Shown here: positions 6,217 through 28,861 of the stretch, piece by piece
How positions within the stretch are numbered: position 1 is the stretch's first letter
How the letters are laid out: each line of letters opens with the position of its first letter
Origin: a virus
Lineage: Duplodnaviria; Heunggongvirae; Uroviricota; Caudoviricetes
Strand: one strand, 5' to 3'
Length of the DNA: 28,861 nucleotides
IMG/VR virus record: IMGVR_UViG_2695420523_000005
Notes under the pieces: model-generated
Database searches by the model: none
What the model saw: only the letters and a program-made list of their open reading frames with translations
What the model was told of the DNA's origin: nothing
Position numbers and translations under genes: made by a program

Positions 6217-6237
6217 GTTGAATATGCTCCTTGATTT

Positions 6238-6258
6238 GGCGGGCTATCCTTGCCCGCC
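6238..6258 (-). promoter_or_regulatory. GC-rich stem-loop between J and the tail fiber with AAGGAUA loop
   Basis: Perfect 7-bp stem ggcgggc/gcccgcc, loop tatcctt; followed on the minus strand by the SD AAGGAG and the fiber ATG at 6216. Confidence 0.5.
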
Positions 6259-6260
6259 AT

Positions 6261-6279
6261 TAAGTAGATACTTACCTAT
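6261..6279. promoter_or_regulatory. Junction motif taagtagatacttacctat between J and the tail fiber
   Basis: Contains the palindrome taagta ga tactta and the TACTTACCTAT core shared with 985..997. Confidence 0.35.
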
Positions 6280-6309
6280 TTTTACCGATATAAAATTTTT
6301 TTTCCACCA

Positions 6310-11642: not shown

Positions 11643-12427
11643 GTCTCATCTCCCTTGAGCAAGTCTCTGTGACGCAAGTGATGCGTCGTATGTTTCTGAT
11701 ACATTCCGCCGTAATAAGCACGACAACTTAGGCGGTCGATCTGGTGATGAAGAATCATTCCATCGCCGATATAAACCGCGCAGTGGTCAGGCATTTTCCC
11801 GTATTGGATAAAGAATACGTCCCCACGTTGAGGCTCTGTTCCGGGCGCAAGACGCACCAATCCCTCGTTACGGTAGTTCTGATCGAGAATGTCGTTATCG
11901 CCGGTGTACCACGATGGAATATGCAGGTGTGCGTTCGGGTTTAGTTCGACGTTAAACTCACGCTTCAAATAGTCCCGACACAACATCCAGCAATCGAATA
12001 CGCCAAATACATACGGTCTACCCAGGTATGGCATTTCGAAACCATCAGGTGTGATCACATTCATCTCGCTAAAATGGAAAGGGGCATCTCCCTCAACATT
12101 CTTGCGAATAGCCAGAATCATCCACGGAACTTCCGTCGCTTCACAGCCTGCACGATCGGCATCAGATGCTTCTGCTGATTCATCAGTATGTGAATGCCAG
12201 ATTGCGATAACATCACCCGCATCCTCTGCCGCCATAATGTCGTCAACGTGCATTACAAAAGTGTTCTGCGGGTTCTCCGAAACATTTCGCGCTTCCATAA
12301 AGCGATATTTGTCGCCATTAGTTCTCACCAGAAAGCCACACGCTTCATTAGGGTAGCGATTTATGGCGCAGAGATAGATTTGCTGCATAACATCAGAGCC
12401 AAGCTCAGGGATTGCTTTATTACCCAT
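11630..12427 (-). CDS. K: Tail assembly protein K (MPN/JAB metalloprotease-like domain + NlpC/P60 domain)
   Basis: JAMM-like HSH...D motif (IWHSHTDESAEASDAD) and a downstream Cys-containing NlpC/P60-like segment (FGVFDCWML). Track start 12454 is TTG; I prefer ATG at 12427 with GGAG upstream. Confidence 0.85.
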   Translation of the reverse strand: MGNKAIPELGSDVMQQIYLCAINRYPNEACGFLVRTNGDKYRFMEARNVSENPQNTFVMHVDDIMAAEDAGDVIAIWHSHTDESAEASDADRAGCEATEVPWMILAIRKNVEGDAPFHFSEMNVITPDGFEMPYLGRPYVFGVFDCWMLCRDYLKREFNVELNPNAHLHIPSWYTGDNDILDQNYRNEGLVRLAPGTEPQRGDVFFIQYGKMPDHCAVYIGDGMILHHQIDRLSCRAYYGGMYQKHTTHHLRHRDLLKGDETCLS

Positions 12428-13118
12428 ATCGCGTAGCTCCAATAAACCCGCCAAAATGGATCACTCCGTTGGCAAAATAATTCCGACGCGCATTACAGGC
12501 GTCATAACGTTTTGTGCAGTAATCAGCACCAGACATAGACGTCTGCTGGTTATTTTTGTCGAAATATGGACCGGTATAGCCGCATTCTGGCCCTCGGTAT
12601 TTCCACGGGCAGGTGTTTTTAATGATCTGACGATACGGCAGTTGCACCCCCATCAAATCGAACACACTGGACAACTCAAACTCGACAACCTGATGAGTTT
12701 CGAGCGTTTTCTGTTCGATAAACCACATTTCATCCGGGAAATGTTGGTTTGGATCTGCTGTTGGATTACCGTCTTTAAAATTAACGGCATCGAGGAAGCG
12801 AGCCAGCGTCATCTTGCGAATAATGCGGCAGCCAACAAGATCGTCGTTCGCCTGAACTTCCGCAGAGACGGTTCCGGCAAAGTTCGATACCTGAATTTTT
12901 GGACGTGGCAACGTTCCCTGGCCAGTTTTGTCAAAGCCTGATGCTTTGATTGGCCACGGCTCGTATGTCACTCCTTGCCAGACGACCGGTTGCATCAGTT
13001 CGTTTGTTCCGGCGTGGAAGAATAGCTTCCCCCCTGAAGTTGTGTTCGACATATCCAGTACGAACAACTCAATGAGTGCAGAGGGAGATAAGCTCTGAAT
13101 ATCAGCTTTAATTCCCAT
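12420..13118 (-). CDS. L: Minor tail protein L (Fe-S cluster-type cysteine motif)
   Basis: Conserved L-family blocks (ARFLDAVNF, NTCPWKYRGPECGYTGP) match recalled lambda gpL. Track start 13151 lies inside a stem-loop; I prefer ATG 13118 (MGIKADIQ...) with AAGGA 7 nt upstream. Confidence 0.9.
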   Translation of the reverse strand: MGIKADIQSLSPSALIELFVLDMSNTTSGGKLFFHAGTNELMQPVVWQGVTYEPWPIKASGFDKTGQGTLPRPKIQVSNFAGTVSAEVQANDDLVGCRIIRKMTLARFLDAVNFKDGNPTADPNQHFPDEMWFIEQKTLETHQVVEFELSSVFDLMGVQLPYRQIIKNTCPWKYRGPECGYTGPYFDKNNQQTSMSGADYCTKRYDACNARRNYFANGVIHFGGFIGATRYG

Positions 13119-13140
13119 TGTTTCATCCTTGAAATAAGTA

Positions 13141-13163
13141 GGCGCTAACATCCTGTCAGCGCC
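13141..13163 (-). promoter_or_regulatory. Stem-loop between M and L with AGGAU loop
   Basis: ggcgctaac/gtcagcgcc with one mismatch, loop atcct on the plus strand; about 25 nt upstream of the preferred L start. Confidence 0.5.
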
Positions 13164-13200: not shown

Positions 13201-13536
13201 TTAAGCCTCAAATACTTGTCTGAATGTAGCAGTTAAGACACAGTACCCCTGATATCGCTTGACCGTATGACTGTCACATACAACTACAATCTGCTTGCCT
13301 CTTGGATTAACCCAATAGAACGATTCAACACCTGATCGCTCAGTCAGGAAATCATCGACTGCATTAATTTCGTTGTATGATCTGGTAAAGGTTAACGACC
13401 ATTCTTCTTTAATACGATTAAGACCTTGAGCCTGTCGCTGCTCGTAGTCATCACCAAAATTAAGTACCGTTACATTCGGTTTTACGCTCTTTTCAGATTC
13501 GTAATCTGGATACCAATTAAACGTTTGTCTTTCCAT
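13201..13536 (-). CDS. M: Minor tail protein M
   Basis: 111-aa ORF between the tape measure and L, the canonical lambda order; ATG at 13536 directly follows a hairpin whose loop carries AGGA. Confidence 0.8.
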   Translation of the reverse strand: MERQTFNWYPDYESEKSVKPNVTVLNFGDDYEQRQAQGLNRIKEEWSLTFTRSYNEINAVDDFLTERSGVESFYWVNPRGKQIVVVCDSHTVKRYQGYCVLTATFRQVFEA

Positions 13537-13573
13537 CTCACATCCTTGTGAGACTGCCCCGACCGGGGCAGTC
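13537..13573 (-). promoter_or_regulatory. Two adjacent stem-loops between tape measure and M; the proximal one carries the SD (AGGA) of M in its loop
   Basis: gactgcccc/ggggcagtc (13552..13573, loop gacc) and ctcaca/tgtgag (13537..13552, loop tcct); the M start codon begins at the base of the proximal stem. Confidence 0.6.
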
Positions 13574-13578
13574 GATAG

Positions 13579-16500
13579 TTAGTTACGTTGAGTGTTTGGG
13601 TTGAGTGATCCGCCAGGGCGTTTCTCTTGAGCGATAGTCTCAAGCGCGATTGCTTTCATCCGTTGAGCGGCATTGTTCCATATGCTTTCTGTATCGCCGG
13701 ATTCTGTCGTGCTACCGTCACTATGGACGTTGATCTCAATTGATACAGGAGAAAGAACATTTCCTCCTCCACTCATACCATCGGTACTTAGCGTTACAGG
13801 GATTGTTCGACCATCAGGCAATGGAACATACGCCTCATTCATATCGCCTTCCCCAAACAACGCCAATTGAGGTGAGTTGGCGATACCGCCTTTCTGGTAT
13901 GCCCGGAGCGGGATCACGCCGTCTTTTCCGAATATTCCTCCATTTGCAAACTTCGGGATTGCAGGAATGCCATTCGTGCCATCGGCAGCAGAACTGGTCA
14001 GATTGTTGAACCCGGAAGTTGAGCCAGAAGAACCGGACATCAATCCATCGAATCCACCACCAGCCCAAGCTGAAACAAGACCAGATGCAACCGTTGCTCC
14101 AAAACTCAACCACTTATTACCAGAGCCGGAAGCATTAGCTCCAAGCATTGCAAACGCGGCAGACAGCGCGCCGGTAACAGAGCTGAGGTTCTGCATCGAG
14201 AAGATGGAGTCCTTCACTGCTTTTGTCTCAGCATCTTTGGCTTCGGTGCTATCAAATAGCCCCGATACCCAGCTACCAATCGCATTTGTTGCTGTGCCAA
14301 TTGCGCTGGTGGTCTGCTGTGTTGTTTGCCCCAATCCAGTTACCGAACTGGACGTCTCCTTCGTGGCTTCTCCTACAGACTTGTCGCCGTTAACAGTGTT
14401 GCCCATTCGTACCCCTTGATTGGCAACGGCGGAAGCAACCCCGGTCAGCAAATTACCACTCTGTGAACTACCAGCAGCGGTGGTCCCCATCCCCAACATG
14501 TTCATTAGAGGCAGCGTGATCTGCGACTTCACGACCATATTGGTGATATCTTTCAAAATGGACTGAGATAGGCTGGAGAAGCTCATCTTCCCGTTAATAA
14601 CGAAATCAGTCAGGACATCAGTTAAGCCACTAAACAAATCAGTCCAGGTGCTTTCGATCTGCTCTGCCAGGTTTTCGTATTCCAGTGCCAACTTCTGCGT
14701 CGCAGTCCCCGTCTCTTTAATAAGCGCGGTATTGCCAGCAGCAATCAGTTGATTGATTTTCTTTGTATAAAGCGCCACAACTTTAGGATCAGACGCCTTA
14801 TCACGAAGTTCTATCAACGCTTTGAGATTGCGGTTGTAGGTGTCTTCGAAATCAGCAACTTTCTCTTCACGAGACGGCGTATAGCCAGCACTAATAATGG
14901 AATCCGCCTCCGGTGCCCAAGTGGAGATCATCTGCTCAACATTGCGGCGATTAAACATCTCGCGATATTCAGGTGTCGCATTTTTGAGGTCTTCAAGACG
15001 TTTTTTCGCCTTGTCGATCATCTCTTGAGTGATGAACTCGTTAGGTACCGCATTAGCCAAATCTGTCAGCGATTTCGTTGTATCGCGAAGAGACTGATCA
15101 AACGATACCGTAGCCTTAGAGCTTTCACCCATTTGCCCCATAAGCTGATCAGCTTTGTCCAGAGCCTTCTGGTATCCGGCTGCCAGTTTCTGTTGCGCTG
15201 CCTGTTCCTTCTTGGCCGCACGCTGCGAGGCGTTAGCTGATCGTTGGGCTGCTTTCTCGGCAGCTGCTGCATCCTGTTCACGAGCTTTAGTCAGTGCAGC
15301 AATGGCTGCAGCACGCTCTTCATCGCTCATTTTCTCCAGAGAGCTGGCGCTGGATGCTTTCTGCAAATTAAGCTGCGTCTTGAGTTGTTTAGGCCCAATA
15401 ATCGGCTTACCTTCGAAGTCCATCATCGGAGTGCCGTCAGGCAAAGTACGCTGATAAGTCGCAGAATCCATCTGGTTTCGCATATATTGCGCCAGCGCCT
15501 TCTGAGCAGCTTTATCAGTTGTACCTAACCCAAGAACAGTCCCCTGGTTTGACATTACGCCCTTACCAGTTTTGGCCGCGTTATCTCTCTCGAACTCTGC
15601 CTGAGTCAGCTCCTGAGCAACGGCTTCCAAATGCTCCTGATAACCACGAATACTGCCTTGCAGTTTCTGGATCTGCTCGGTATTTCCATCCTTTTTGGCT
15701 TTTTCAAGCTGATCATTAAGAGTCGCAATTTGCTTCTCGGTCGCATTCTTACGAGAAGAAAGTGAATCAACCAGTTTTTGCGCAGGCTCCAGATAGCTTT
15801 TGTTTACCGTTTCACGTAACGGTGCCAATAGCTTGTTCTTTTCGTCATCTGAAAGTGAACCGTCATCATTGATTTTCTGGATCTTATCCAGAGCCTCCTG
15901 CCGGGCTTTCACGAATGTTGCCGCGAAAATCTGGTTTTCCGCTCGAATTTTCTCAATCTGAGATTCGGCAGCCTCTTTAGCCAAACGCTTTGCTACAGCG
16001 CCGTCACCAAGAGCTATCGTGCCGGTTATCTTTTGATACTCTTCCTGATTTTTTTTCAGGCGTGCTTCGATGTCAGCCTTCGACTCTTTGTGAGTAATAA
16101 CACCGGCAGAGTTAGATACGTAATTAACACCCTCACCAGTTTTTAATGCTCGTTGATCAGCAAGAATCTGCTTTTCGAGCTTTTCTGCGCGGTCGGCCAT
16201 TTGTGCACGTTTGGCCGCTGTCATCGCTTCTGGTATTTTCCTAATCTCGTCAACGACCTTTGAAGTTTCGCTGCGGAGCATGGTCATGTACGTGATTAGG
16301 CCAGCAACAGCTACAGTGGCAACTGTAAATGCTGCCCCTATAGGGTTTGCTGCAATGAACGCCGTTAATCCAGCAAAAGCGCCTTTAAGCCCCGTAATCG
16401 CCCCACGGATGGCGAAAATAAGAGAGGGGATCGGAGCCAGCCCCATACGTGCCGCACGATTGAATCGAGTTACTGCTGTAGCGCCGAGGTTAAATGGAGT

Positions 16501-18168
16501 CTGTATGGCGGTCGCCATCGTGGCAAAGGTGCTAACCATCTGGCTCCCAGCGCCAACTACCCCCATGATCCCTGCTCGCATCAGTTTGAACGCAACCATC
16601 GCGGCCACGACCTTACCGAGATTAATTACCAGCTCTTGGTTCTTTGCTAACCATTGAGCAAGCTGACGCAACCCATCGATTGCCGTTGTTAACCCCGAAC
16701 CTAAAGAATTGGCAAACGAAATCCCTTCGGCGCTATTCATGATTGAAGCCAGTTCTTTCATCCCCTTCGATAGAGAATCCAGATATCCGGCCTGACCAAC
16801 CCGATCAGCAAATAACGTGAATGACGTCTGAAGTTGCGCCAGCGCACCTGTGTAGGTTTGCATCATGTCTTTCGCTGCGTTCTCATTCTCCGCACGCAGA
16901 CCAACAAACATCAGAGACAACGCCTGTTTTGCCTCAACCGTACCGCTGGCAACGGCTTTAGTCAGTTCCCCCATAGTGATGCCTGCGGCGTCTGCCATTG
17001 CCTGCATCGCGTTAGGAACGGCTTCACCTAATTGCTGACGTAGCTCTTCCATTGACACGACGCCCTTACCGGACATCTGCTGAACGGCCACAGCCGCACG
17101 TTTCAACAGCTCACTATCACCACCAAAACGAGCAACGGAGTCCACCAGCGCCTTCAGAGAGCCATCGGTTGGATCTAAGCCAGCAGAACGAAACTTCACG
17201 AAGGAATCTGTTAACGCCTGCATCGCGAACGGCGCATTTTGAGCCATGTCTACGATGTACTTCATGTCATCGGCGGCAGCCTGGCCAGGGTTAGACTTCT
17301 CCTTATTCAACCCACGAAGCATCACCCGCATACGTTCCATTTCGGCCGCAGCTTCAACAATAGGCTTCTGCCATCCAAACATGATGTCAGTAACCGTTCT
17401 GGCTGCATCTCCGATCTCGCCAAGCAGGAAAATGTTGCCACGAAGGCCAGAGAACATACCTCCTTCGTTACTTTTACCGCTATGGCCAGAGCCGCTACGC
17501 CGCCCGCTGCCACCATCGCCACTTCCAGATGTACGAACGCGTACCGGCTTGCTAATCAGTTGCTGACGTCCGATAACTTCGTCCATCTGCTCACGAACCT
17601 TTTTCAGTCCCTCGGCAGCCTGACTCGTTGTGACACCCCAATTACTGAGTCGCTTCGTCGTGGTATTAAGGCGCGTATTCATGCCACTCACGGACGCAGA
17701 GGCTTCTTTGACCTCCGTACCAAAGCGGCTTGCGCTTTTGCTTGCATAGGTCGCCCAATCAGAGAAATCATTTAGCTCTGATTGCACTTTACGTAATGAC
17801 GCGGTGAGTTTATCTACTGAAGAAGTTGTCGTATCGACGCGCTCAATCAGGGCTTTAAGACCAGAATTGAGGCTGGTGATGTTGCCACGCATTTTACGCG
17901 TAGCATCTGAAGCAAGCTCAAAACCGGCAGCTACATCCTGTAGTTTATCTGCCGTAGAATCGAGCTTGCTTTCCAGAACGCCAATGATACGGGCGACCGA
18001 ACCCAAAGAGCGTTCAAAGGTTTGGATTTTTTGAGCAGGCTTTGTTACCTGCTCACCAAATCGAGTAAGCAGTTTCCCCGCACGATCGATTGACGCTGTA
18101 AACTGTTTGTCTTCCAGCGACAGGATAAACTCTACGTTTTGTGACATTCCCTTGTCATCCTCTGCCAA
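13579..18168 (-). CDS. H: Tail tape measure protein
   Basis: 1529-aa ORF, largely helical/coiled-coil with Gly-rich C-terminal part and hydrophobic central segments; position after G/GT. Start is TTG at 18168 (MAEDDKG... resembles recalled lambda gpH N-terminus MAEPVGD); first ATG is at 18147. Confidence 0.9.
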   Translation of the reverse strand: MAEDDKGMSQNVEFILSLEDKQFTASIDRAGKLLTRFGEQVTKPAQKIQTFERSLGSVARIIGVLESKLDSTADKLQDVAAGFELASDATRKMRGNITSLNSGLKALIERVDTTTSSVDKLTASLRKVQSELNDFSDWATYASKSASRFGTEVKEASASVSGMNTRLNTTTKRLSNWGVTTSQAAEGLKKVREQMDEVIGRQQLISKPVRVRTSGSGDGGSGRRSGSGHSGKSNEGGMFSGLRGNIFLLGEIGDAARTVTDIMFGWQKPIVEAAAEMERMRVMLRGLNKEKSNPGQAAADDMKYIVDMAQNAPFAMQALTDSFVKFRSAGLDPTDGSLKALVDSVARFGGDSELLKRAAVAVQQMSGKGVVSMEELRQQLGEAVPNAMQAMADAAGITMGELTKAVASGTVEAKQALSLMFVGLRAENENAAKDMMQTYTGALAQLQTSFTLFADRVGQAGYLDSLSKGMKELASIMNSAEGISFANSLGSGLTTAIDGLRQLAQWLAKNQELVINLGKVVAAMVAFKLMRAGIMGVVGAGSQMVSTFATMATAIQTPFNLGATAVTRFNRAARMGLAPIPSLIFAIRGAITGLKGAFAGLTAFIAANPIGAAFTVATVAVAGLITYMTMLRSETSKVVDEIRKIPEAMTAAKRAQMADRAEKLEKQILADQRALKTGEGVNYVSNSAGVITHKESKADIEARLKKNQEEYQKITGTIALGDGAVAKRLAKEAAESQIEKIRAENQIFAATFVKARQEALDKIQKINDDGSLSDDEKNKLLAPLRETVNKSYLEPAQKLVDSLSSRKNATEKQIATLNDQLEKAKKDGNTEQIQKLQGSIRGYQEHLEAVAQELTQAEFERDNAAKTGKGVMSNQGTVLGLGTTDKAAQKALAQYMRNQMDSATYQRTLPDGTPMMDFEGKPIIGPKQLKTQLNLQKASSASSLEKMSDEERAAAIAALTKAREQDAAAAEKAAQRSANASQRAAKKEQAAQQKLAAGYQKALDKADQLMGQMGESSKATVSFDQSLRDTTKSLTDLANAVPNEFITQEMIDKAKKRLEDLKNATPEYREMFNRRNVEQMISTWAPEADSIISAGYTPSREEKVADFEDTYNRNLKALIELRDKASDPKVVALYTKKINQLIAAGNTALIKETGTATQKLALEYENLAEQIESTWTDLFSGLTDVLTDFVINGKMSFSSLSQSILKDITNMVVKSQITLPLMNMLGMGTTAAGSSQSGNLLTGVASAVANQGVRMGNTVNGDKSVGEATKETSSSVTGLGQTTQQTTSAIGTATNAIGSWVSGLFDSTEAKDAETKAVKDSIFSMQNLSSVTGALSAAFAMLGANASGSGNKWLSFGATVASGLVSAWAGGGFDGLMSGSSGSTSGFNNLTSSAADGTNGIPAIPKFANGGIFGKDGVIPLRAYQKGGIANSPQLALFGEGDMNEAYVPLPDGRTIPVTLSTDGMSGGGNVLSPVSIEINVHSDGSTTESGDTESIWNNAAQRMKAIALETIAQEKRPGGSLNPNTQRN

Positions 18169-18822
18169 ATATTTGCATCAGTTGCTCTTTGGCGTCAGGG
18201 TCTGCCTTATCCTGGCTTGGATCGTAGACTTTATCTGTTACGACTGGTCTTCCAATCCTGAGTTGCAAACCCTCCATGAACGCCTTCACAGCCTCGCCAT
18301 CCGCCTGGGACGCACGAGCGACTTGTAAGTTGCGGACATCCTCTTCCGCACGCAGACGGTCTATATTGCGACTGAGCATCCAGAACATCGTGAGAGGAAC
18401 GTTCAGTAGCTCTAATGGCGACACGGCGTAGTGAGCAACTACACGACTGAAATAGAATCCGAGATCTATTGAGACGGTCCTTGTCCCGGATTCATCGCGG
18501 GAAATTACTTTGCCCCTTCGCCAGCCGCTTTTTCGTTTTCTTCATCAATCACTTCCATAGCGAAGGTGAAGATCTGCTGGAGTTGCGGAACAGTCAGTTT
18601 TTCAAGAACTTCATCAGGCACTGAAGGGATAACCTTACGAACCAGATCTGCATAAGCTGTCACTTGCTCAACAGGAGACATGTTCATGAGATCTTTTCCT
18701 TCCATCTGCTTGATGGAAACGAACAGACCTACCGTCATTTCAACGATGGGATATTCCTGACCGCCAAATTTGATGCTTTTCTTCGGAGGCAGAATGGAAT
18801 CGAGATCGAGTAATTTGGTCAT
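18155..18822 (-). CDS. Tail assembly chaperone G-T fusion produced by programmed -1 ribosomal frameshift
   Basis: The downstream ORF (track 18155..18424) is in the -1 frame relative to G and that frame is open from 18541, giving a 36-nt overlap window (18508..18541) containing an AAAAAG run at 18528..18533. The slip site is not the canonical lambda GGGAAAG. Confidence 0.6.
18505..18822 (-). CDS. G: Tail assembly chaperone G
   Basis: 105-aa acidic ORF immediately upstream of the tape measure; ATG 18822 with AAGGA upstream; stop TAA at 18507..18505. Confidence 0.8.
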   Translation of the reverse strand: MTKLLDLDSILPPKKSIKFGGQEYPIVEMTVGLFVSIKQMEGKDLMNMSPVEQVTAYADLVRKVIPSVPDEVLEKLTVPQLQQIFTFAMEVIDEENEKAAGEGAK

Positions 18823-18833
18823 TGGTTAAAATC

Positions 18834-18864
18834 CTTTTAAAAGAGAGGCTCATCCTGAGCCTCT
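18834..18864 (-). terminator. Terminator/attenuator-like stem-loop downstream of the major tail gene
   Basis: 9-bp stem agaggctca/tgagcctct (18844..18864) with 3-nt loop; followed on the minus-strand RNA by CUUUUAAAAGGAU, then the ATG of G at 18822. Confidence 0.55.
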
Positions 18865-18877
18865 GCTTAATTACTGA

Positions 18878-19624
18878 TTAATCTGCGGAGTTAATCGTTA
18901 CTGACTTAGTAGCCTTCTTAGAACCGCTATTGCTGGTGAAGGAGATGTTTGCTGTACCCTGCGCCACACCGCGCACAAGACCCGTTTGATCTACCGTGGC
19001 CTTTTCCTGGTCTTCGGATTCCCAAACACCGGTTTTGTCTGCGGCATCAGCTGGAGTGATTTCGGCTGTCAGTTGCACAGTTTCTCCAGCTTTTACGGTT
19101 GGAGATTCCGGTGAGATCGACACAGTTTTTACCGGTTTAGGACCGCTCATTTTGCCCAGAACGCCTTCATCATCCGGGTATGCGCTGAACTGAACAGAGA
19201 ACACACGAACATCATCAGACTGGTAAGTCATAGTGAAGTTGCCCGCGGTTGCCGCTTTCGGGATGGTCAACACATAGTCGGTGGTGTCCTGCGGAGTCAG
19301 AACCAGCTCCTTCGCCACATCAATCAGGTTAACGCCCTGTGCAGATGTGATCGTGACAGAGTTGTCATCTTCGCTCAGAGTAGAACCAGGCATCAGGTCA
19401 ACCATGTTTTGGAGTACAGACTCAGCCAGAGGCGCGGTGATGGTAATGTTGCGCCCCTGAACTAATTCGGAAATTACGGTCTGCCCCAACTGATCGACGG
19501 TGACTTTCAGTGTTTCAGTGGCTACTTCAACCTGAACACCACCTTTGGTGTAACCCAAATCCACACCACCAAACGACACCTTACAGGCACCAAGTTTGAT
19601 GTTTTTTACATGGGTATTAGACAT
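18878..19624 (-). CDS. Major tail (tube) protein with C-terminal Ig-like (Big_2) domain
   Basis: Position immediately upstream of G; C-terminal ~80 aa (VSISPESPTVKAGETVQLTAEITPADAADKTGVWESED...) is an Ig-like repeat like those of the 22284..23204 protein. Track start 19660; I prefer ATG 19624 (MSNTHVKNIK...) with AAGGAG upstream. Confidence 0.8.
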   Translation of the reverse strand: MSNTHVKNIKLGACKVSFGGVDLGYTKGGVQVEVATETLKVTVDQLGQTVISELVQGRNITITAPLAESVLQNMVDLMPGSTLSEDDNSVTITSAQGVNLIDVAKELVLTPQDTTDYVLTIPKAATAGNFTMTYQSDDVRVFSVQFSAYPDDEGVLGKMSGPKPVKTVSISPESPTVKAGETVQLTAEITPADAADKTGVWESEDQEKATVDQTGLVRGVAQGTANISFTSNSGSKKATKSVTINSAD

Positions 19625-19672
19625 TGATGGAAAACTCCTTTTTCCGTTAATTCTACGCATTCATTGCGCTAA

Positions 19673-19692
19673 TAGTAAGTATATACTTACTA
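19673..19692. promoter_or_regulatory. Perfect 20-bp AT-rich palindrome tagtaagtatatacttacta upstream of the major tail gene (recurrent TACTTAC junction motif)
   Basis: The sequence equals its own reverse complement; lies between the upstream stop (19699) and the major tail start. Confidence 0.4.
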
Positions 19693-19698
19693 ATTGAG

Positions 19699-20055
19699 TT
19701 AATTCAATAAATAGCCAGCAAATTCAACAGGAATGCCTGCTTCTATTAATGCCCCATCATTTTTGGGATAAATGATTGGCATCGCCATCGGTCGAACAAG
19801 TCGAAAATAAACACCACCAGATTCCGTTTCCTCTACTGGAAACATCTCAATGATTTTATTGGCTTTCTCAACCGTCGTAGTAATTGACGAACCACGCACA
19901 ATTATTGTGAATGATTCGTGGTAAAAGCCCTGTAGCTCATGATCGATGCTGATACCGGTATTTGGGTTAATAAGCAGGACGCCAGATTTCACATTGGCAG
20001 GCAAGTAGTGACAGAAAATGTCAGTCCCGACCGTGCCAATCTTTGCCTTCTGCAT
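19699..20055 (-). CDS. Tail terminator-like protein (by position, gpU-equivalent)
   Basis: Track ORF 19699..20205 starts at TTG and overlaps the upstream gene by ~120 nt; ATG at 20055 (MQKAKIG...) removes the overlap. Function by synteny only. Confidence 0.45.
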   Translation of the reverse strand: MQKAKIGTVGTDIFCHYLPANVKSGVLLINPNTGISIDHELQGFYHESFTIIVRGSSITTTVEKANKIIEMFPVEETESGGVYFRLVRPMAMPIIYPKNDGALIEAGIPVEFAGYLLN

Positions 20056-20083
20056 CAAACTTGCAAACGCTTCAATAAACACA

Positions 20084-20557
20084 TTAACCTCTCGTAAAAC
20101 CGGCTTTTCTGGCAGCCTCAAGAATCGCTTCTGAGAACTGCTTCTCGCTAATTTCCACCGCTCTTTCCAGAAAGTGTGGCCCAACACGAGGTTTAACACC
20201 GGCAATTGGTGGGTTTGTCACGTTCTTCATTCGAGAAAGATAACCGAGTCGGTATTTACCCAGCTCCATGTACTTAGCATAGTCACCTACTTCTACGCCC
20301 GGATGCCCCTGACGTGGTTTTGCTCCAGACACAGAAAGCTCAATACGCAGCCCTGAATAACCTTCTTTAATCACCCTGGCAAAGATGGCTGTCTCCAGAG
20401 ATCCGGTTTCCAGCGGGGCCATTGCACGGCTGAGACGCTCAACCAAACGCGCCAGCTTTTCCATGTCCCGGATAAGATATCGCTTAAATGCTTTCTGGCT
20501 GTTGTTGAGTCGATTCCCCGCACGTTTGAACTGATGCGCATCGTATTTCAGACCCAT
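20084..20557 (-). CDS. Head-tail joining / tail completion protein candidate (by position)
   Basis: 157-aa ORF, ATG at 20557 overlapping the upstream stop by 10 nt; no recognisable motif. Confidence 0.45.
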   Translation of the reverse strand: MGLKYDAHQFKRAGNRLNNSQKAFKRYLIRDMEKLARLVERLSRAMAPLETGSLETAIFARVIKEGYSGLRIELSVSGAKPRQGHPGVEVGDYAKYMELGKYRLGYLSRMKNVTNPPIAGVKPRVGPHFLERAVEISEKQFSEAILEAARKAGFTRG

Positions 20558-20892
20558 ATATTCGCCCCTACTTCAAGATGCCCAGGTCTTCCTCGTAGCC
20601 CCCAGCGGCGATGAACACTGGACACCTTTAATTTTTGACCTTCAAGGATCAGTACATCATCAAGTTGTACAGCCGCTTCCAAAGGGACAACTAACACAGC
20701 ATCAAACAGCTCCAGACTCGCCTTACCACGACTACCAGAGCTATCAGCACGAACTGACGATTTCTCATTACTCTGTTCGAACTTAACCACGCCGACATTC
20801 GTCTTCCTGACGAATTGTAATTGCGCCTCACCGTAAACGTTCTTTGCGCCAAAGCGGTAGATCGCAATTTCTGTTTGCCATGAAATATTCAT
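20548..20892 (-). CDS. Head-tail joining protein candidate (by position)
   Basis: Track ORF starts at 20988; internal ATG at 20892 (MNISWQTEIAIY...) has GGGAGA about 5 nt upstream and avoids overlap with the preceding gene. Confidence 0.45.
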   Translation of the reverse strand: MNISWQTEIAIYRFGAKNVYGEAQLQFVRKTNVGVVKFEQSNEKSSVRADSSGSRGKASLELFDAVLVVPLEAAVQLDDVLILEGQKLKVSSVHRRWGLRGRPGHLEVGANIWV

Positions 20893-20971
20893 GCTCTCTC
20901 CCTGTTGTTGTCGGTCGCTCTCATTACTGGCCAAAAACCCTTTAGACCAAAAGTAAATAATGCGACTGGCG

Positions 20972-21805
20972 TTACGCACGGCGAACAATCATACGGTTGT
21001 TGATGTAACTGACCAGCAAGCGCCAGGTACTGCGAGCCACATGCACGTTTGCAGCTTTACCGGTACGGTACATGTTGGTTGTTTCACCGATGGACTCTGA
21101 CAAAATGCCATCCTCTCGTGCTGCGGCAACATCATTGCCATTTGCGATCTCACACGCTTCGTTGACAACGGCAAGCATCAACGCTTCTTTGAAGTAGTCA
21201 GGGAACTCTTCAAACTTCTCCTGCGTCATCTTTTCCCAATCGACTAAATCATGCCGGTACGCTCCATCTGCTCCCCACGGAATGTCATACACATTCAGCA
21301 TATTTTGAGGGCGATCGTATCGGTCAAAGTCGATACGTAGAATTTTGCGGATTGAGAACGGTAAAGTTTTAATTCGTCTGGTAGCCTCAATGAGACGCTT
21401 GCGCATTAAGCCTTCACCATCCGACAGCAAAGTGTCCCCATTCAGCATATCGATCGCCTGCATTTGAGCATCAGCGACAGTTGCAAACGACTGTTCTGGT
21501 ATCGACAGTTCAAAACTATTCAGCAGAACATACATTTGCCGCTCTTCATGCGTCAGACCCGATGCAACAGCCTTCACAATGACGTACCGCAGATCGCGTT
21601 CTTTCTCTGAGAGCTGGTTATATTCAGCCGACACGACAACCGGAATCGACATTTGCCCGCTGGTAATTTCTAGCGGCTCGCCATCAACGAGAATAGCCCC
21701 GGTGCTGTCCTTTACTGTGTAGGTGGCAGATTCGATATCCAGCACGTTGAAGGCAAATGAAAGAGAAACAGCTTCACCGCTACGATACGAGTCGATCTGC
21801 GCCAT
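20972..21805 (-). CDS. Hypothetical head-tail connector region protein (277 aa)
   Basis: ATG at 21805 overlaps the upstream stop (TAATG coupling); unusually large for an adaptor protein; no motif recognised. Confidence 0.5.
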   Translation of the reverse strand: MAQIDSYRSGEAVSLSFAFNVLDIESATYTVKDSTGAILVDGEPLEITSGQMSIPVVVSAEYNQLSEKERDLRYVIVKAVASGLTHEERQMYVLLNSFELSIPEQSFATVADAQMQAIDMLNGDTLLSDGEGLMRKRLIEATRRIKTLPFSIRKILRIDFDRYDRPQNMLNVYDIPWGADGAYRHDLVDWEKMTQEKFEEFPDYFKEALMLAVVNEACEIANGNDVAAAREDGILSESIGETTNMYRTGKAANVHVARSTWRLLVSYINNRMIVRRA

Positions 21806-22239
21806 TACTCACCGCCTTGTGCTTTCAGGATGCCTTCAATCATCTCGACAATTCCTTTCGCTTTAACACCAACCTGATTACCAATAACTCGTAGACCGGC
21901 AATACCTTCATTGTCTGCAATTGACTCCAACTCTTCTCGTGTGAAAGTCTGGAGCTGTTTGATCGGTTCATCTGGCGTCCCTCGTTTCATTGGCACAATG
22001 TCAGGCGCTACTGGCTCTGTAATCAGGTCTGCGGCCAATTCACCACGATCACTGTATGCGGCAGATGGGGAAACATTTTTTCCCTCTACTGTTGACGCTC
22101 GCATTGATGCACAAATTCTCTGCTGATCGATAAAAGGCAACTCTGCGACGGACACCCCATTCTCGAACTGAACGCCGCACAACATTCCCGAATAACCGGA
22201 AAATTGCGGTTCTAATAAAACAATTTTTGCTGGTTTCAT
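21805..22239 (-). CDS. Hypothetical head completion / adaptor candidate (144 aa)
   Basis: ATG at 22239, preceded by a GC-rich stem-loop with GAAA loop (22258..22275). Confidence 0.5.
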   Translation of the reverse strand: MKPAKIVLLEPQFSGYSGMLCGVQFENGVSVAELPFIDQQRICASMRASTVEGKNVSPSAAYSDRGELAADLITEPVAPDIVPMKRGTPDEPIKQLQTFTREELESIADNEGIAGLRVIGNQVGVKAKGIVEMIEGILKAQGGE

Positions 22240-22257
22240 AACGCTTTCTCTCTACAT

Positions 22258-22275
22258 GGGCGGCGAAAGCCGCCC
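22258..22275 (-). promoter_or_regulatory. GC-rich stem-loop (GAAA loop) between the Ig-like protein gene and the next gene
   Basis: gggcggc gaaa gccgccc, perfect 7-bp stem; no U-tract follows on the minus strand. Confidence 0.45.
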
Positions 22276-22283
22276 AATATCGG

Positions 22284-23204
22284 TTATTCCTGTGCGGCAG
22301 TAACTTCTACAGTCGCTGTCGCTTTGTGGCTACCATCTTGGGTAGTAACCTCGATTGTGGCAGTGCCAGCCGCAACACCAGTTACAACACCGGTTTCGCT
22401 GTCCACCGTTGCAAACTCGGTATTTTTGGATTCCCAAGTAACGGTTTTATTTGTTGCTCCTGCCGGCTCGACATTTGCGGTCAGCTGAACAGTTTTGTTT
22501 GCCTCAACGGTTGTGCTATTTGGGTCGATTTCGACACCAGTAACAGCCACAACAGGCGCAGTTACTTCCACCGTTGCAGTTGCCTTTTTGCTGCCATCTT
22601 GGGAAACGATCTCAATCGTCGCAGTGCCAACTTCTACACCAGTAACGTTCCCGCTCTGGTCTACCGTTGCCTTGTCTTCATTTTTGGAAGACCAGGTAAC
22701 TGCCTTATTCGTCGCATTTGACGGCTGAACATTCGCTTTCAGACTGACTGATTTCCCTTTCTCAACAGAAGTTGAGTCTGGCGTTACCGTTACGGATTGA
22801 ACGGCTACCGGATTTACGGTGACTTCCACTGACGCGGAAAGCTGGGTTTCCTGATCAGTTGCGGTAATTTTCACTTTGCCTGGTGCTACGCCAGTTACTA
22901 ATCCAGTGCCGTTGACGGTTGCAATTTGATCATTGGCTGACTTCCAGGTGAATGAACTGGCACTCTTACCCATAGTAATACCTGCACTAAGTTGAACAGT
23001 TTTCCCAACCAAAACTGACGGTGAAGCCGGGGTTATGTTTACGGATTGGGAGAAGGGAACCGCCTGCAAACAAGCAGATAGCTGACTTTGCTGTCGCTCG
23101 GTTAAAGGTTCATCGGAGATTGAATTGGTAAATCCGGCACGGCACATATGCCCCGTAAAATCCGAAAATGCCTCTTCCGTAATCTTCATCTTTTGTTCTG
23201 GCAT
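22284..23204 (-). CDS. Protein with three tandem Ig-like (Big_2) domains; capsid decoration protein candidate
   Basis: Three ~90-aa repeats of the pattern SV.VTP.S.SV..GKTVQL.A.V.P..ATNK.VTW.S.N...ATVD..G.VTGV..GTA.I; ATG 23204 with GGAG upstream; immediately downstream of the major capsid gene. Confidence 0.7.
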   Translation of the reverse strand: MPEQKMKITEEAFSDFTGHMCRAGFTNSISDEPLTERQQSQLSACLQAVPFSQSVNITPASPSVLVGKTVQLSAGITMGKSASSFTWKSANDQIATVNGTGLVTGVAPGKVKITATDQETQLSASVEVTVNPVAVQSVTVTPDSTSVEKGKSVSLKANVQPSNATNKAVTWSSKNEDKATVDQSGNVTGVEVGTATIEIVSQDGSKKATATVEVTAPVVAVTGVEIDPNSTTVEANKTVQLTANVEPAGATNKTVTWESKNTEFATVDSETGVVTGVAAGTATIEVTTQDGSHKATATVEVTAAQE

Positions 23205-23214
23205 TTCTCGCTCC

Positions 23215-23245
23215 TACAAAAAGGGTGGGCGTATAGCCCACCCTT
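23215..23245 (-). terminator. Intrinsic terminator-like stem-loop downstream of the major capsid gene
   Basis: Perfect 10-bp stem aagggtgggc/gcccaccctt with loop gtata (23221..23245); on the minus-strand RNA it is followed by UUUUUG, then GGAG and the next ATG at 23204. Confidence 0.7.
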
Positions 23246-23250
23246 TAACA

Positions 23251-23268
23251 TAGATAATTACTTATCTA
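23251..23268. promoter_or_regulatory. Junction motif tagataattacttatcta (imperfect palindrome), just after the major capsid stop
   Basis: 17 of 18 positions identical to the copy at 26674..26691; arms tagataa / ttatcta are reverse complements. Confidence 0.4.
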
Positions 23269-23277
23269 CTGCACTGA

Positions 23278-24153
23278 TTAAATTTTTACATTGGTCAGTG
23301 CAGCGATAGCCTTATCGTGCTTATTCGCCAGAGAGCAGTACCACTTCACACGGGTACGTACTGCGTCTTTGTTCTGTACAGTACCAATGTTTTCAACAAC
23401 GATACCTGCGTTGTCGCCGCCATACAGACCAGTAACGCCGTTCTCTTCTGACAGATGCAGGCAGTAGATGCTTGCTTTACCAGCATCGGTCGGGATGAAG
23501 TCGTTGATGATGAACGGAACGCCGTTATGACACAGCATCGGACGACCAAAGTTCTCCATCATGATTTCAGACGGACCTACGTTTACTGTACGCAGCAGCG
23601 CACGGTAAGCACGAAGGTGCTCTGAACGCATCATGATGCAGTCAGCACCAAGATCTTTCACCGCATCGACCAGTTCGTCGAACATAGAGAAAGTCATAGA
23701 TGCACCGGCGATATCGATCTTCTGATCTGCGTGCATCAGGCGTGGAATGCCGTCAAACGCTTTGTTGTTGGTGCTGGAGTCACCCAAAATCAGATTGCGA
23801 CGGAACGCACGAGCCAGACCTTTAACTTTCTGACGAACCTGAATAGCCAACTGGTTATTGGTGTCGGCCATAGTGGTTGCCAGGAATTTATCAACGTCTA
23901 CGTCACCAGCCAGAATACGCAGTTTCGCAACGCATTCTTCGAAGGTTGCTGCACCTTCAGTGATGGTGTCGTTAACGTCGATGAAGGTAGCTTCACTCAG
24001 CGTTTTTTCACGATTGTACAGATATGCCTTTGAATTAATTTTCATAAAAGGCAGGATGGCAAACAGGTCATCGCGATCAATGATAGTTTCGATCACACCC
24101 TGTTCGAGTTCGTTGTTAGACAGCTTTTCAGCTTCTTCACGCAGTAATGGCAT
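23278..24153 (-). CDS. Major capsid protein
   Basis: 291-aa ORF between scaffold and decoration candidate, followed by a strong intrinsic terminator; assignment by position and size, family not identified. Confidence 0.7.
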   Translation of the reverse strand: MPLLREEAEKLSNNELEQGVIETIIDRDDLFAILPFMKINSKAYLYNREKTLSEATFIDVNDTITEGAATFEECVAKLRILAGDVDVDKFLATTMADTNNQLAIQVRQKVKGLARAFRRNLILGDSSTNNKAFDGIPRLMHADQKIDIAGASMTFSMFDELVDAVKDLGADCIMMRSEHLRAYRALLRTVNVGPSEIMMENFGRPMLCHNGVPFIINDFIPTDAGKASIYCLHLSEENGVTGLYGGDNAGIVVENIGTVQNKDAVRTRVKWYCSLANKHDKAIAALTNVKI

Positions 24154-24178: not shown

Positions 24179-25066
24179 TTACTTAAGTCCAATTTTCCCC
24201 AGACCGGAGGCCAACTTATCCATAGTCGACTTGTTCTTCGGTTGGGATATTGTGTAGGTCGATTTGGAATGTGAGCCTACACCCTGCTTGGCTTCGCTAC
24301 GCATCAATGCGTCAGCTTCCGGATCTGCCCGCACAATGCGTTCAATCGCGGATTCAAACGGCAACGGCTTACCTTCACCGTCAACCAGAACAGCTCGTTC
24401 TTTATGACCTGTCGGTTTGTCATAACCCACTACGCTACCGTCTTCACCCACTTCAAAATGAGAACCGTAGATCACGCGGGCTTTTGCCGGGGTCATCAGA
24501 ACTTTGTCACGTAGGAAGAGAGAGTTACTGAAGGAAGCGCCCACGGTCATCTCGACTAATTGAGATTTCAGTGATGCGTTTTCACTTTCCAGTGCTGTAT
24601 AACGTTCGTCACGCTGTGCCAGTTCTGCCTGGTGTGCTTCGATCATCTGTTTTTTAACAGCATCGAACTCACCACGACGCTCCAGTTCAGCTTGCTCCGC
24701 CTCACGACGTGCATTTTCTGCGGCCTGTTCAGCTTCTAAAAGCTGGCGAGCACGCGCCGGGTCGATATCACCGTACTGAGCAAGCTGATCGGCCAATGTG
24801 CGCTCTTTCTCTTTGCGCTTCATGTTCTCCTTCAGCAGTTCAGCACCAGCTTTCTTGGTTTTACGAAGTTCGGCCAGTAACTCTTCCTGAGTCATGCCAG
24901 CGTATTCGTCATCGCCCTTCGGCTGCTCTTTTTGTTCACCCTGTTTGTCAGGATCTTGTGTGCTCTGCTCATTATCAGCAGCTACACCGCCAGCGCCTCC
25001 ACGCTCATGCGCTTCAGCGACATCCATCAGACCACGACGGGCCAAAAGCATTTGCCACAGATTCAT
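24179..25066 (-). CDS. Capsid scaffolding protein
   Basis: Highly charged, Glu/Ala/Arg-rich helical protein (e.g. ARQLLEAEQAAENARREAEQAELERR) between portal and capsid genes; ATG 25066 with AGGA upstream. Confidence 0.65.
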   Translation of the reverse strand: MNLWQMLLARRGLMDVAEAHERGGAGGVAADNEQSTQDPDKQGEQKEQPKGDDEYAGMTQEELLAELRKTKKAGAELLKENMKRKEKERTLADQLAQYGDIDPARARQLLEAEQAAENARREAEQAELERRGEFDAVKKQMIEAHQAELAQRDERYTALESENASLKSQLVEMTVGASFSNSLFLRDKVLMTPAKARVIYGSHFEVGEDGSVVGYDKPTGHKERAVLVDGEGKPLPFESAIERIVRADPEADALMRSEAKQGVGSHSKSTYTISQPKNKSTMDKLASGLGKIGLK

Positions 25067-28582: not shown

Positions 28583-28656
28583 CCTCTAAAACACACAGAG
28601 CGCGTCCATGCGCTCTAAAACAACTTGTTTACTGCATCTGCTAACCAACTTGTTTT
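28583..28656. promoter_or_regulatory. Direct-repeat cluster and stem-loop immediately upstream of terS (candidate packaging or late-regulatory site)
   Basis: ctctaaaaca at 28584 and 28613 flanking hairpin agagcgc gtccat gcgctct (28598..28617); caacttgttt at 28621 and 28646. Confidence 0.4.
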
Positions 28657-28692: not shown

Positions 28693-28746
28693 GCCTGCTT
28701 CCGTATATATTTAATAAGTTACTTATTATTTATATATACAGAAGCA
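28693..28746. promoter_or_regulatory. Long AT-rich imperfect palindrome upstream of terS, abutting the IS1 end
   Basis: cctgcttccgtatatatttaataag / cttattatttatatatacagaagcagg are near reverse complements around a ttac centre; the last two bases of the right arm belong to the IS1 terminus. Confidence 0.45.
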
Positions 28747-28861
28747 GGTAATGACTCCAACTTATTGATAGTGTTTTATGTTCAGATAATGCCCGATGAC
28801 TTTGTCATGCAGCTCCACCGATTTTGAGAACGACAGCGACTTCCGTCCCAGCCGTGCCAGG
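28747..28861 (-). mobile_element. IS1 terminal fragment (inverted-repeat end plus 3' end of insB), truncated by the window edge
   Basis: 28747.. reads GGTAATGACTCCAACTTATTGATAGTGTTTTATGTTCAGATAATGCCCGATGACTTTGTCATGCAGCTCCACCG..., which I recognise as the reverse complement of the IS1 right end. insB stop codon at 28763..28765 on the minus strand. Confidence 0.9.

Follow-up and report, generated by a model that had tools for sequence, protein, structure and literature searches.

This report concerns a 28,861-nucleotide stretch of viral DNA (IMG/VR record IMGVR_UViG_2695420523_000005; Caudoviricetes), called the window below, and two hairpins within it that follow the genes of the major capsid protein and the major tail (tail-tube) protein. 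The stretch is a late structural operon. All long open reading frames (ORFs) are on the minus strand and are transcribed right to left, and the hairpins and dyads described here are on that strand. The explanation judged best, with a probability of roughly 0.7, is that the hairpin after the capsid gene (hairpin 1) is a Rho-independent terminator belonging to the 3′ end of this gene, that the hairpin after the tail-tube gene (hairpin 2) is a leaky element, and that local signals are situated upstream of the two genes. The terminator interpretation is well supported for the capsid site and weakly supported for hairpin 2, and the two sites are not equivalent. A first-pass annotation of this DNA had read both hairpins as internal terminators that raise capsid and tail-tube protein above downstream low-copy proteins. 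Both hairpins are confirmed; the termination interpretation is partly supported and is incomplete as an account of the RNA excess.

The region between positions 18400 and 24200 (5.8 kb), which spans both hairpins, displays 98% identity to Escherichia phage Cyrano, which is the SSU5-like phage-plasmid pLF82 of E. coli LF82. Its identity to Salmonella phage SSU5 is 81%, and to Klebsiella phage-plasmids ∼77%. The source element is an SSU5-type phage-plasmid, and the window its late morphogenesis operon. The gene order on the minus strand begins with small and large terminase, portal, scaffold-like, major capsid and immunoglobulin (Ig)-like genes, and continues with connector/neck, tail-tube, two chaperone, tape-measure, tail-tip, fibre and lysis genes.

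The hairpin after the capsid gene

The major capsid gene (24153..23278; 291 amino acids) matches the major head protein family phrog_212 with an E value of 5.7e-106, and its equivalent is annotated as major capsid protein in Cyrano (CYRAN_5) and in RefSeq. Hairpin 1 begins 31 nt past the stop codon of this gene, on the same strand as the genes. A further 4 nt separate its end from the AGGAG ribosome-binding site of the next gene, which encodes an Ig-like structural protein (23204..22284; three Big_2 domains, Pfam Big_2 E value 2e-69). The hairpin extends over 23246..23220 as AAAGGGTGGGC-TATAC-GCCCACCCTTT, then TTG, with a left arm at 23246..23236, a 5-nt loop at 23235..23231 and a right arm at 23230..23220. 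The core is an 8-bp G+C stem, GGGTGGGC/GCCCACCC (23243..23236 with 23230..23223), followed by the U-run UUUUUG at 23222..23217. The first three U residues of this run are able to pair with the upstream AAA, and with the flanking A3/U3 paired the stem has 11 bp and is followed by UUG. The earlier description, a 10-bp stem plus UUUUUG, had location and coordinates right and the stem slightly off, as the alternatives are 8 bp plus UUUUUG or 11 bp plus UUG. The folding energy is −20.5 kcal/mol (z = −4.2), and none of 200 shuffled sequences folds as well. Hairpin 1 therefore has the anatomy of an intrinsic terminator, i.e., a G+C stem, a short loop, a U-tract and a sense orientation past a stop codon, far enough from it to clear the terminating ribosome.

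Close relatives keep this structure with little change. A comparison of 51 distinct capsid-downstream spacers, drawn from IMG/VR contigs and plasmids, shows near-zero entropy in the stem and T-run columns; the core pairs form in 50–51 of the 51, and all 51 have a T-run of at least five. Across these relatives the stem reads GGGTGGGC/GCCC(A/G)CC(C/T). There are two stem changes, both one-sided and both retaining pairing (U-A to U.G in nine sequences and G-C to G.U in 12). The loop varies (TATAC, TATGC, TAAGC, TTTGC, AAGTC, AGTC, TTTC and TTGC), and the upstream spacer is highly variable. The Ig-like gene is missing in some relatives; there, another gene follows the capsid gene, and hairpin 1 stays with the capsid gene.

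A profile search that took one genome per species recovered distant capsid homologues from alpha-, beta- and gamma-proteobacteria, Firmicutes and heliobacteria, the most divergent at 31% identity. Of 32 non-redundant lineages, 29 have a hairpin of −15 kcal/mol or lower no more than 130 nt past the capsid stop codon; among 947 control windows drawn from the same loci, 3.9% have one. With a T-run at the stem end added to the test, the proportions are 66% of lineages and 0.7% of controls. The hairpin sequences in these lineages are unrelated: the position has been kept and the sequence has turned over. The distant lineages thus supply the evidence that the constraint on the capsid gene hairpin is one of structure and not of sequence. 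The proposal of a terminator at this site is thus borne out by canonical anatomy, invariance in close relatives and family-wide position, and by the RNA levels described below.

The hairpin after the tail-tube gene

The tail-tube gene (19660..18878) encodes a protein with a C-terminal Big_2 domain. The assignment rests on this domain and on gene position, with the tail-completion gene on one side and the chaperone and tape-measure genes on the other; with the phrog_212 match and the Cyrano and RefSeq annotation of the capsid gene, both gene assignments of the first-pass annotation hold. The start codon is ambiguous, at 19660 or 19624; Cyrano annotation uses the ATG equivalent to 19624.

Hairpin 2 begins 13 nt past the stop codon of this ORF, at 18864..18844, and has the sequence AGAGGCTCA-GGA-TGAGCCTCT, then CTTTTAAAA, with a 9-bp stem and a 3-nt loop. 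Sequence, stem and tail are exactly as described previously. The G+C stem and short loop are those of an intrinsic terminator. The folding energy is −15.2 kcal/mol (z = −2.3), and six of 200 shuffles fold as well. The tail, CUUUUAAAA (18843..18835), has four U residues and runs into the AAAAGGA ribosome-binding site of the next gene.

Among 29 distinct versions of hairpin 2 the stem GAGGCTC/GAGCCTC is kept. A compensatory change is also found, from U-A to C-G in Klebsiella (GAGGCCCAT/ATGGGCCTC), with a U.G intermediate in Cyrano-type sequences. The tail is variable: TCTTTT, TTTTTT, GCTTCT, TCTTCA and TCTTTA are found in relatives, and TGTATGAG in Klebsiella, where the U-run is replaced by GUAUGAG (UGUAUGAG as RNA) and a T-run is found no closer than 8 nt. 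Of 20 distant lineages, ∼15 have a G+C hairpin past the tail-tube gene, often without a T-run. The loss of the U-run is an argument that the conserved role of this hairpin is not classical termination. Hairpin 2 is best read as a leaky terminator and/or an RNA stability element, i.e., a 3′-stabilizing stem loop. As to the proposed terminator at the tail site, the conserved and compensated stem is in its favour; the short, non-conserved U-run and the small RNA fall described below are not.

RNA levels in phage Cyrano

Strand-resolved, paired-end RNA sequencing (RNA-seq) data (GSE154648) have been re-analysed on the Cyrano genome in a study of LF82 prophages (PMC9928086). The values used here are from S1 Table of that study (MB6 columns), given there per gene as log2(5+FPKM) and converted to fragments per kilobase per million (FPKM). 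The MB6 sample represents LF82 bacteria from macrophages 6 h after infection, and its two replicates agree.

On the capsid side, the levels are 57 FPKM for the scaffold-like gene, 187 for the major capsid gene, 19 for the Ig-like gene and 11–17 for the genes that follow. On the tail side, they are 54 for tail completion (Tc1), 340 for the tail tube, 190 for chaperone G, 29 for the chaperone T part and 34 for the tape measure. There is thus a ∼10-fold drop, at per-gene resolution and in a non-lytic sample, across the 88-nt spacer that contains hairpin 1 (187 vs. 19 FPKM), and a 1.8-fold drop, also at per-gene resolution, across hairpin 2 (340 vs. 190 FPKM). A further, 6.6-fold drop comes after the chaperone G stop codon (CYRAN_13 at 190 vs. 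CYRAN_14 at 29 FPKM). In the Cyrano record (OV696614), the U-run of hairpin 1 (window 23222-23217) corresponds to 5491-5497, the tail of hairpin 2 (window 18844-18839) to 9868-9873, and the chaperone stop codon to 10205-10207. The genes downstream of hairpin 1 are co-directional with the capsid gene, with no strong promoter match between, and their RNA is ∼10% of capsid RNA. The first-pass annotation had put forward 3′ ends or coverage steps as a check; the per-gene data show a step between the capsid and Ig-like genes, and at the tail site one of 1.8-fold at most. The capsid step probably results from termination at the nucleotides of hairpin 1. The fall after the chaperone G stop codon is plausibly Rho-dependent polarity or faster decay, as most ribosomes would leave there.

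Capsid RNA is also 3.3-fold, and tail RNA 6.3-fold, above the genes upstream of each. Termination cannot produce such an excess, and either local promoters or selective stabilization of these segments is needed. Partial termination, which had been offered as the cause of the capsid and tail excess, would account for the drops downstream and is not the whole explanation, as the upstream neighbours are also three- to sixfold lower. The capsid and tail genes thus each probably have a local start signal or processing site.

Stabilization has been considered as the principal role. The hairpins might be mainly RNA stability elements, whose stem loops, after termination or endonucleolytic cleavage at other sites, block 3′-to-5′ exonucleases so that the upstream segment outlives the rest, with control of read-through secondary; this would apply above all to hairpin 2. 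It accounts, as termination does not, for capsid and tail RNAs that exceed both their upstream and downstream neighbours, and it is consistent with the stem of hairpin 2 being kept without the U-run in Klebsiella and many distant lineages, as well as with further conserved G+C hairpins that lack a T-run after the Ig-like, tape-measure, J-like and fibre genes. Opposed to this, the T-run of hairpin 1, of five or more in every close relative and enriched over controls in distant lineages, is a termination signature, and the T-less hairpin after the Ig-like gene shows no RNA step in Cyrano (19 vs. 16.5 FPKM). As the general explanation, stabilization is possible but not probable.

Hairpins elsewhere in the window

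The coding strand was scanned for hairpins of −12 kcal/mol or lower that have at least four T residues in the next 6 nt. Three sites are found in the 28.9 kb: hairpin 1, hairpin 2 and one upstream of the small-terminase gene. All are intergenic, where intergenic DNA constitutes ∼3% of the window, and 40 dinucleotide shuffles gave a mean of 0.85 sites anywhere. In the whole Cyrano genome, 28 of 52 sites (−8 kcal/mol or lower) fall in the 13% of the DNA that is intergenic, and hairpin 1 is the second strongest. Within the 28-kb late region of Cyrano, the only intergenic hits between genes are hairpins 1 and 2, a third being upstream of the first late gene.

A loose consensus terminator scan gave no separation between real and shuffled sequence (22 vs. 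17.7 sites); it caught hairpin 1 only partly, and missed hairpin 2 because the tail has only four T residues. The promoter counts of the scan likewise were no higher than in shuffled sequence. That shuffled sequence has as many consensus sites as real sequence would fit chance inverted repeats without function. The fold z-scores, the exclusively intergenic location of strong sites, the invariance in 51 relatives and the family-wide position speak against chance, which is refuted by the conservation data and has a negligible probability. Rfam covariance models, applied to the whole window on both strands, gave no match at the gathering score. RNase III processing sites of the T7 R-site type were considered and rejected for the hairpins as well as for the A+T-rich dyads that carry the TAAGTA word (see below): such a site needs an irregular duplex of about two helical turns (∼20 bp or more), and the stems are 9–11 bp in hairpins 1 and 2 and 7–14 bp in the dyads.

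The third hairpin with a T-run (28619..28594) is TAGAGCGC-ATGGAC-GCGCTCTG, then TGTGTTTT. It lies between an A+T-rich inverted repeat and the start codon of the small-terminase gene, 17 nt ahead of the latter, and is either the terminator of an upstream operon or a barrier at the entry to the late operon similar to lambda tR′. Its location, reminiscent of lambda pR′-tR′, enters into a further proposal, that terminators insulate the plasmid state from stray transcription and are overridden by an antiterminated polymerase in lytic growth. Discrete capsid and tail transcripts even under non-productive conditions, and a sigma-70-like promoter match directly upstream of the tail-tube gene, are compatible with this. 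However, no antiterminator was identified, and family-wide placement after the two highest-copy virion proteins is a prediction of stoichiometry and not obviously one of insulation. Insulation is thus an unlikely explanation, and control of capsid and tail transcript levels is preferred.

G+C-rich intercistronic hairpins without a T-run are also present after the Ig-like gene (22240-22283; TGGGCGGC-TTTC-GCCGCCCA), the tape-measure gene (13537-13578; GACTGCCCC-GGTC-GGGGCAGTC), the J-like gene (6217-6309; GGCGGGC..GCCCGCC) and the fibre gene (2098-2187; 14-bp stem). The hairpin after the Ig-like gene has a conserved position in relatives and a changed sequence. Both the ribosome-binding site (AGG) and the ATG of the tail-tip L-like gene (13151..12420) are enclosed in a 10-bp hairpin, GGCGCTGACAGGATGTTAGCGCC (13141-13163). 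This hairpin directly follows a TAAGTA dyad, and Cyrano RNA falls fivefold from the preceding gene; it may be a translational or transcriptional attenuator.

The TAAGTA dyad

No hexamer is more over-represented than TAAGTA in the intergenic DNA of Cyrano (27 observed vs. 6.3 expected; z = 8.2). On the coding strand of the window the word occurs 12 times, nine times between genes and once across a stop codon; 5′ coordinates of copies are 28725, 26687, 25087, 24185, 23264, 19689, 13191/13187, 6274 and 989. In enterobacterial members the word is typically the left arm of an A+T-rich dyad (TAAGTA..TACTTA), and pairing is kept by compensatory changes (at one pair of the dyad before hairpin 1, G-C in 25, A-T in 12 and G-T in 14). 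Copies precede the portal, scaffold, capsid, tail-tube, tail-tip L, fibre and holin genes, and a degenerate one precedes hairpin 2.

Copies of the word or dyad flank the two genes of interest. The word at 24185..24180, which is 32 nt ahead of the capsid start, overlaps the stop codon that ends the scaffold-like gene, and the dyad TAGATAA-GTAA-TTATCTA (23268..23251), which carries TAAGTA, is in the spacer that separates the capsid stop codon from hairpin 1. Ahead of the tail-tube gene there is a perfect palindrome, TAGTAAGTATATACTTACTA (19692..19673), overlapped by the sigma-70-like match TTGAAT-18-TATACT (19707..19678). This match fits the Cyrano data, in which tail gene RNA rises independently at both 1 h and 6 h inside macrophages. 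The promoter consensus scan gave no sigma-70 match upstream of the capsid gene.

At the same positions in distant relatives, the form is (A/G)TAAGTCA-N4-TGACTT(A), with three to seven copies per 12-kb locus in five loci, where ∼0.02 are expected. The AAGTCA-N4-TGACTT members are alpha-, beta- and gamma-proteobacterial, and a TAnnnT hexamer usually abuts the dyad. In enterobacterial and distant relatives alike, the dyad stands directly before the G+C hairpin that follows the capsid gene; in distant relatives it also stands before the one that follows the tail-tube gene.

Two simple identities were rejected. TAAGTA is not a late-only signal, as copies also precede the helicase, primase, uvsY, ssb, thyX and parB genes in Cyrano. 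Neither is it a sigma-70 −10 or −35 element, as spacing to partner hexamers is inconsistent and only the tail-tube copy overlaps a decent match.

The relation to RNA levels is suggestive. At six late-operon junctions that have TAAGTA and no hairpin after it, RNA increases by 0.3 to 2.5 log2 units. The association of the word with an RNA increase has a p value of 0.31 unfiltered and of 0.03 after post-hoc exclusion of two hairpin-bearing junctions, and is a hint only.

Perhaps the dyad and hairpin are one composite module, a factor-dependent promoter with TAnnnT as its hexamer and a start at or inside the left arm of the hairpin, so that the hairpin would be a 5′ stem loop or attenuator of the downstream transcript in addition to the terminator of the upstream one. 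The placement of the dyad immediately before the capsid gene hairpin (in enterobacterial and distant members) and the tail-tube hairpin (in distant members; degenerate in the window) would fit, as would the RNA rise at the six junctions and a resemblance of the dyad to the late-promoter −22 box of phage P1, AAGTGACTT, with its −10 hexamer. This explanation is nevertheless improbable. The gene behind the capsid dyad and hairpin has little RNA (19 FPKM), the junction statistics rest on the post-hoc exclusion, arm spacing and box-to-hexamer spacing differ from those of P1, and no homologue of the P1 activator Lpa was found in Cyrano.

A broader suggestion, offered tentatively, is that dyad plus hairpin is a conserved composite in which the dyad would be the binding site or promoter box of a factor shared across the SSU5 supercommunity, with a logic like that of P1 and Lpa. 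On this view the late region would consist of a series of units, each with its own promoter and insulated by terminators, and not of one operon; starts would be at the feet of the terminators, and the capsid and tail-tube units would be the strongest. A first candidate for a dyad-binding factor is the 88-residue winged-helix-like protein encoded directly ahead of the small-terminase gene (CYRAN_123, phrog_900).

Related observations concern other copies. A long A+T-centred inverted repeat, CCTGCTTCTGTATATA..TAAGTA..TATATACGGAAGCAGG (28694-28748), is found upstream of the late operon, and a similar inverted repeat, then TTTT, follows CYRAN_30 (Cyrano 31160-31215). Two small late-region genes, CYRAN_11 (Cyrano 8630-9013; window ∼19699-20082) and CYRAN_16 (15185-15520; ∼13201-13536), have expression well above their neighbours in the B6 condition (log2 values of 5.7 and 6.6, respectively, with neighbours at ∼3–4.7), which suggests that internal promoters work outside the lytic cycle. 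Each of the two genes has a TAAGTA word ∼190–250 nt upstream, inside the preceding gene.

Neighbouring genes

Downstream of hairpin 2, the tail assembly chaperone pair (18822..18155) consists of the G ORF (18822..18505) and a second ORF (18424..18155). Three-frame translation shows that the −1 frame is open across the G stop codon into the second ORF, and the 80-nt 'gap' between the chaperone ORFs (window 18424-18540) is coding in the −1 frame. The reading frames thus point to a programmed frameshift of the G/GT type, with GAAAAAG as a candidate slippery run; public annotations give G and T as two separate ORFs.

The right edge of the window (28746-28861) is the end of an IS1 element and matches IS1 copies in E. 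coli genomes at 100%. IS1 has inserted into the left arm of the long inverted repeat, ∼170 nt ahead of the small-terminase start, and the insertion may disturb the late-operon control region of this particular element.

Proposed mode of action and significance

In the mechanism proposed, a polymerase passing through the capsid gene would make a G+C stem of 8–11 bp followed by five U residues, at which most polymerases would release. Judging by available RNA data, roughly one polymerase in ten would continue through to the Ig-like, connector and tail genes. The capsid message would keep the hairpin as its 3′ terminus, which should protect it from 3′ exonucleases, and capsid mRNA would be expected to exceed that of the downstream low-copy genes by a wide margin. 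After the tail-tube gene, hairpin 2 would act in the same way with far less efficiency. The main RNA fall on the tail side would come one gene later, past the chaperone G stop codon, in a stretch that most ribosomes presumably do not translate. The candidate for the upstream signal is the conserved TAAGTA dyad. The capsid and tail genes would then be semi-autonomous units inside the operon, like promoter-gene 10-T-phi in T7.

Several points weigh against this interpretation. Antitermination of late transcription, as in lambda, would let the polymerase pass internal terminators in lytic growth, and the terminator-like hairpin at 28619..28594, directly ahead of the small-terminase gene, would agree with this. 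The RNA-seq data are per-gene counts at low depth (10–340 FPKM). No Cyrano virions were detected inside macrophages (PMC9928086), and the transcripts may therefore not be late lytic ones. Depending on how fragments that cover two genes are handled, featureCounts applied to fragments may under-count short genes adjoining others, so that the 1.8-fold step at hairpin 2 might be an artefact of counting. The U-run next to this hairpin comprises only four U residues and is lost in Klebsiella and many distant lineages. Finally, no double compensatory change was found in the hairpin 1 stem among the 51 close relatives, and these alone cannot separate a structural from a sequence constraint.

SSU5-type phage-plasmids are common in clinical Enterobacteriaceae, and the capsid region is matched by 940 plasmid records in PLSDB. 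A literature search on SSU5/pHCM2 transcription or motifs returned nothing relevant beyond the LF82/Cyrano paper, and nothing on late gene control. The analysis provides a late-operon map with an efficient terminator after the capsid gene, a leaky stem loop after the tail-tube gene and a candidate dyad before both. The capsid gene terminator is a useful annotation landmark, as its position is kept down to 31% capsid identity in Proteobacteria and Firmicutes, and it is an example of a regulatory structure that has outlived its own sequence. The principle of attenuation after high-copy structural genes is already known from T7-like and other phages.

Comparison with known systems

The annotated late promoters of phage P1 have a −22 box (AAGTGACTT, AAGTTACTT or AAATGACTA), 4 nt and a −10 hexamer. 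The Lpa-dependent promoter is described by a 9-bp box, AAGTNACTT, a 4-nt spacer, a −10 hexamer and a phage-encoded activator of the Lpa family. The dyad is similar in its palindromic AAGT/ACTT arms, in the TGACTT of distant relatives and in the TAnnnT hexamer that follows, and its copies are scattered before late genes, including one just upstream of the small-terminase gene, as are P1 late promoters. It differs in that the arms are 4–8 nt apart rather than 1 nt, the hexamer abuts the dyad rather than being 4 nt away, and replication and recombination genes have copies in front of them too. Searches of Cyrano by tblastn (best E value 0.29), PHROG and Pfam detected no Lpa homologue. With differing spacings and no Lpa homologue, assignment of the dyad as a P1-type Lpa-dependent late promoter was rejected.

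Leaky intrinsic terminators balance phage gene expression in LUZ7 and T7, and those of LUZ7 have been mapped by ONT-cappable-seq (PMC9163698). Their considerable read-through produces stepwise transcription units in structural operons and sets the relative levels of genes that are transcribed together. Hairpin 2 fits the LUZ7-type leaky class, with the difference that 3′ ends and efficiencies were measured in LUZ7 and are estimated here from per-gene counts in a relative.

Stabilizing stem loops, which need no U-run, are found in bacterial polycistronic mRNAs, for example the repetitive extragenic palindromic (REP) sequences in malE-malF and the hairpins of the puf operon. As in these, a stable hairpin here follows a highly expressed cistron, and the upstream segment has the higher level; the Klebsiella version of hairpin 2 and the T-less hairpins match this pattern. 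Unlike REP sequences, the hairpins of the window are not members of the REP family, and each is single copy with a lineage-specific sequence.

The closest parallels to hairpin 1 are from T7 and LUZ100. In T7, the T-phi terminator follows gene 10, which encodes the major capsid protein, and the phi10 promoter is upstream. The Pseudomonas phage LUZ100 has a strong terminator directly after the capsid gene together with a local promoter (PMC10134795). As in T7 and LUZ100, a stem loop with a U-run is situated directly past the capsid gene within a long co-directional structural operon, termination is incomplete, which leaves the essential downstream genes expressed, and capsid RNA is above that of both neighbours, which implies a local start signal. 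Those phages use a phage single-subunit RNA polymerase and its own promoters. The element here is a temperate siphovirus phage-plasmid. No phage RNA polymerase is annotated in Cyrano, and the host enzyme thus likely transcribes the late operon. With respect to the T7-type unit, a terminator after the capsid gene with partial read-through is present in this operon, and the local promoter is represented by a candidate, namely the TAAGTA word 32 nt upstream of the capsid gene, where RNA rises 3.3-fold.

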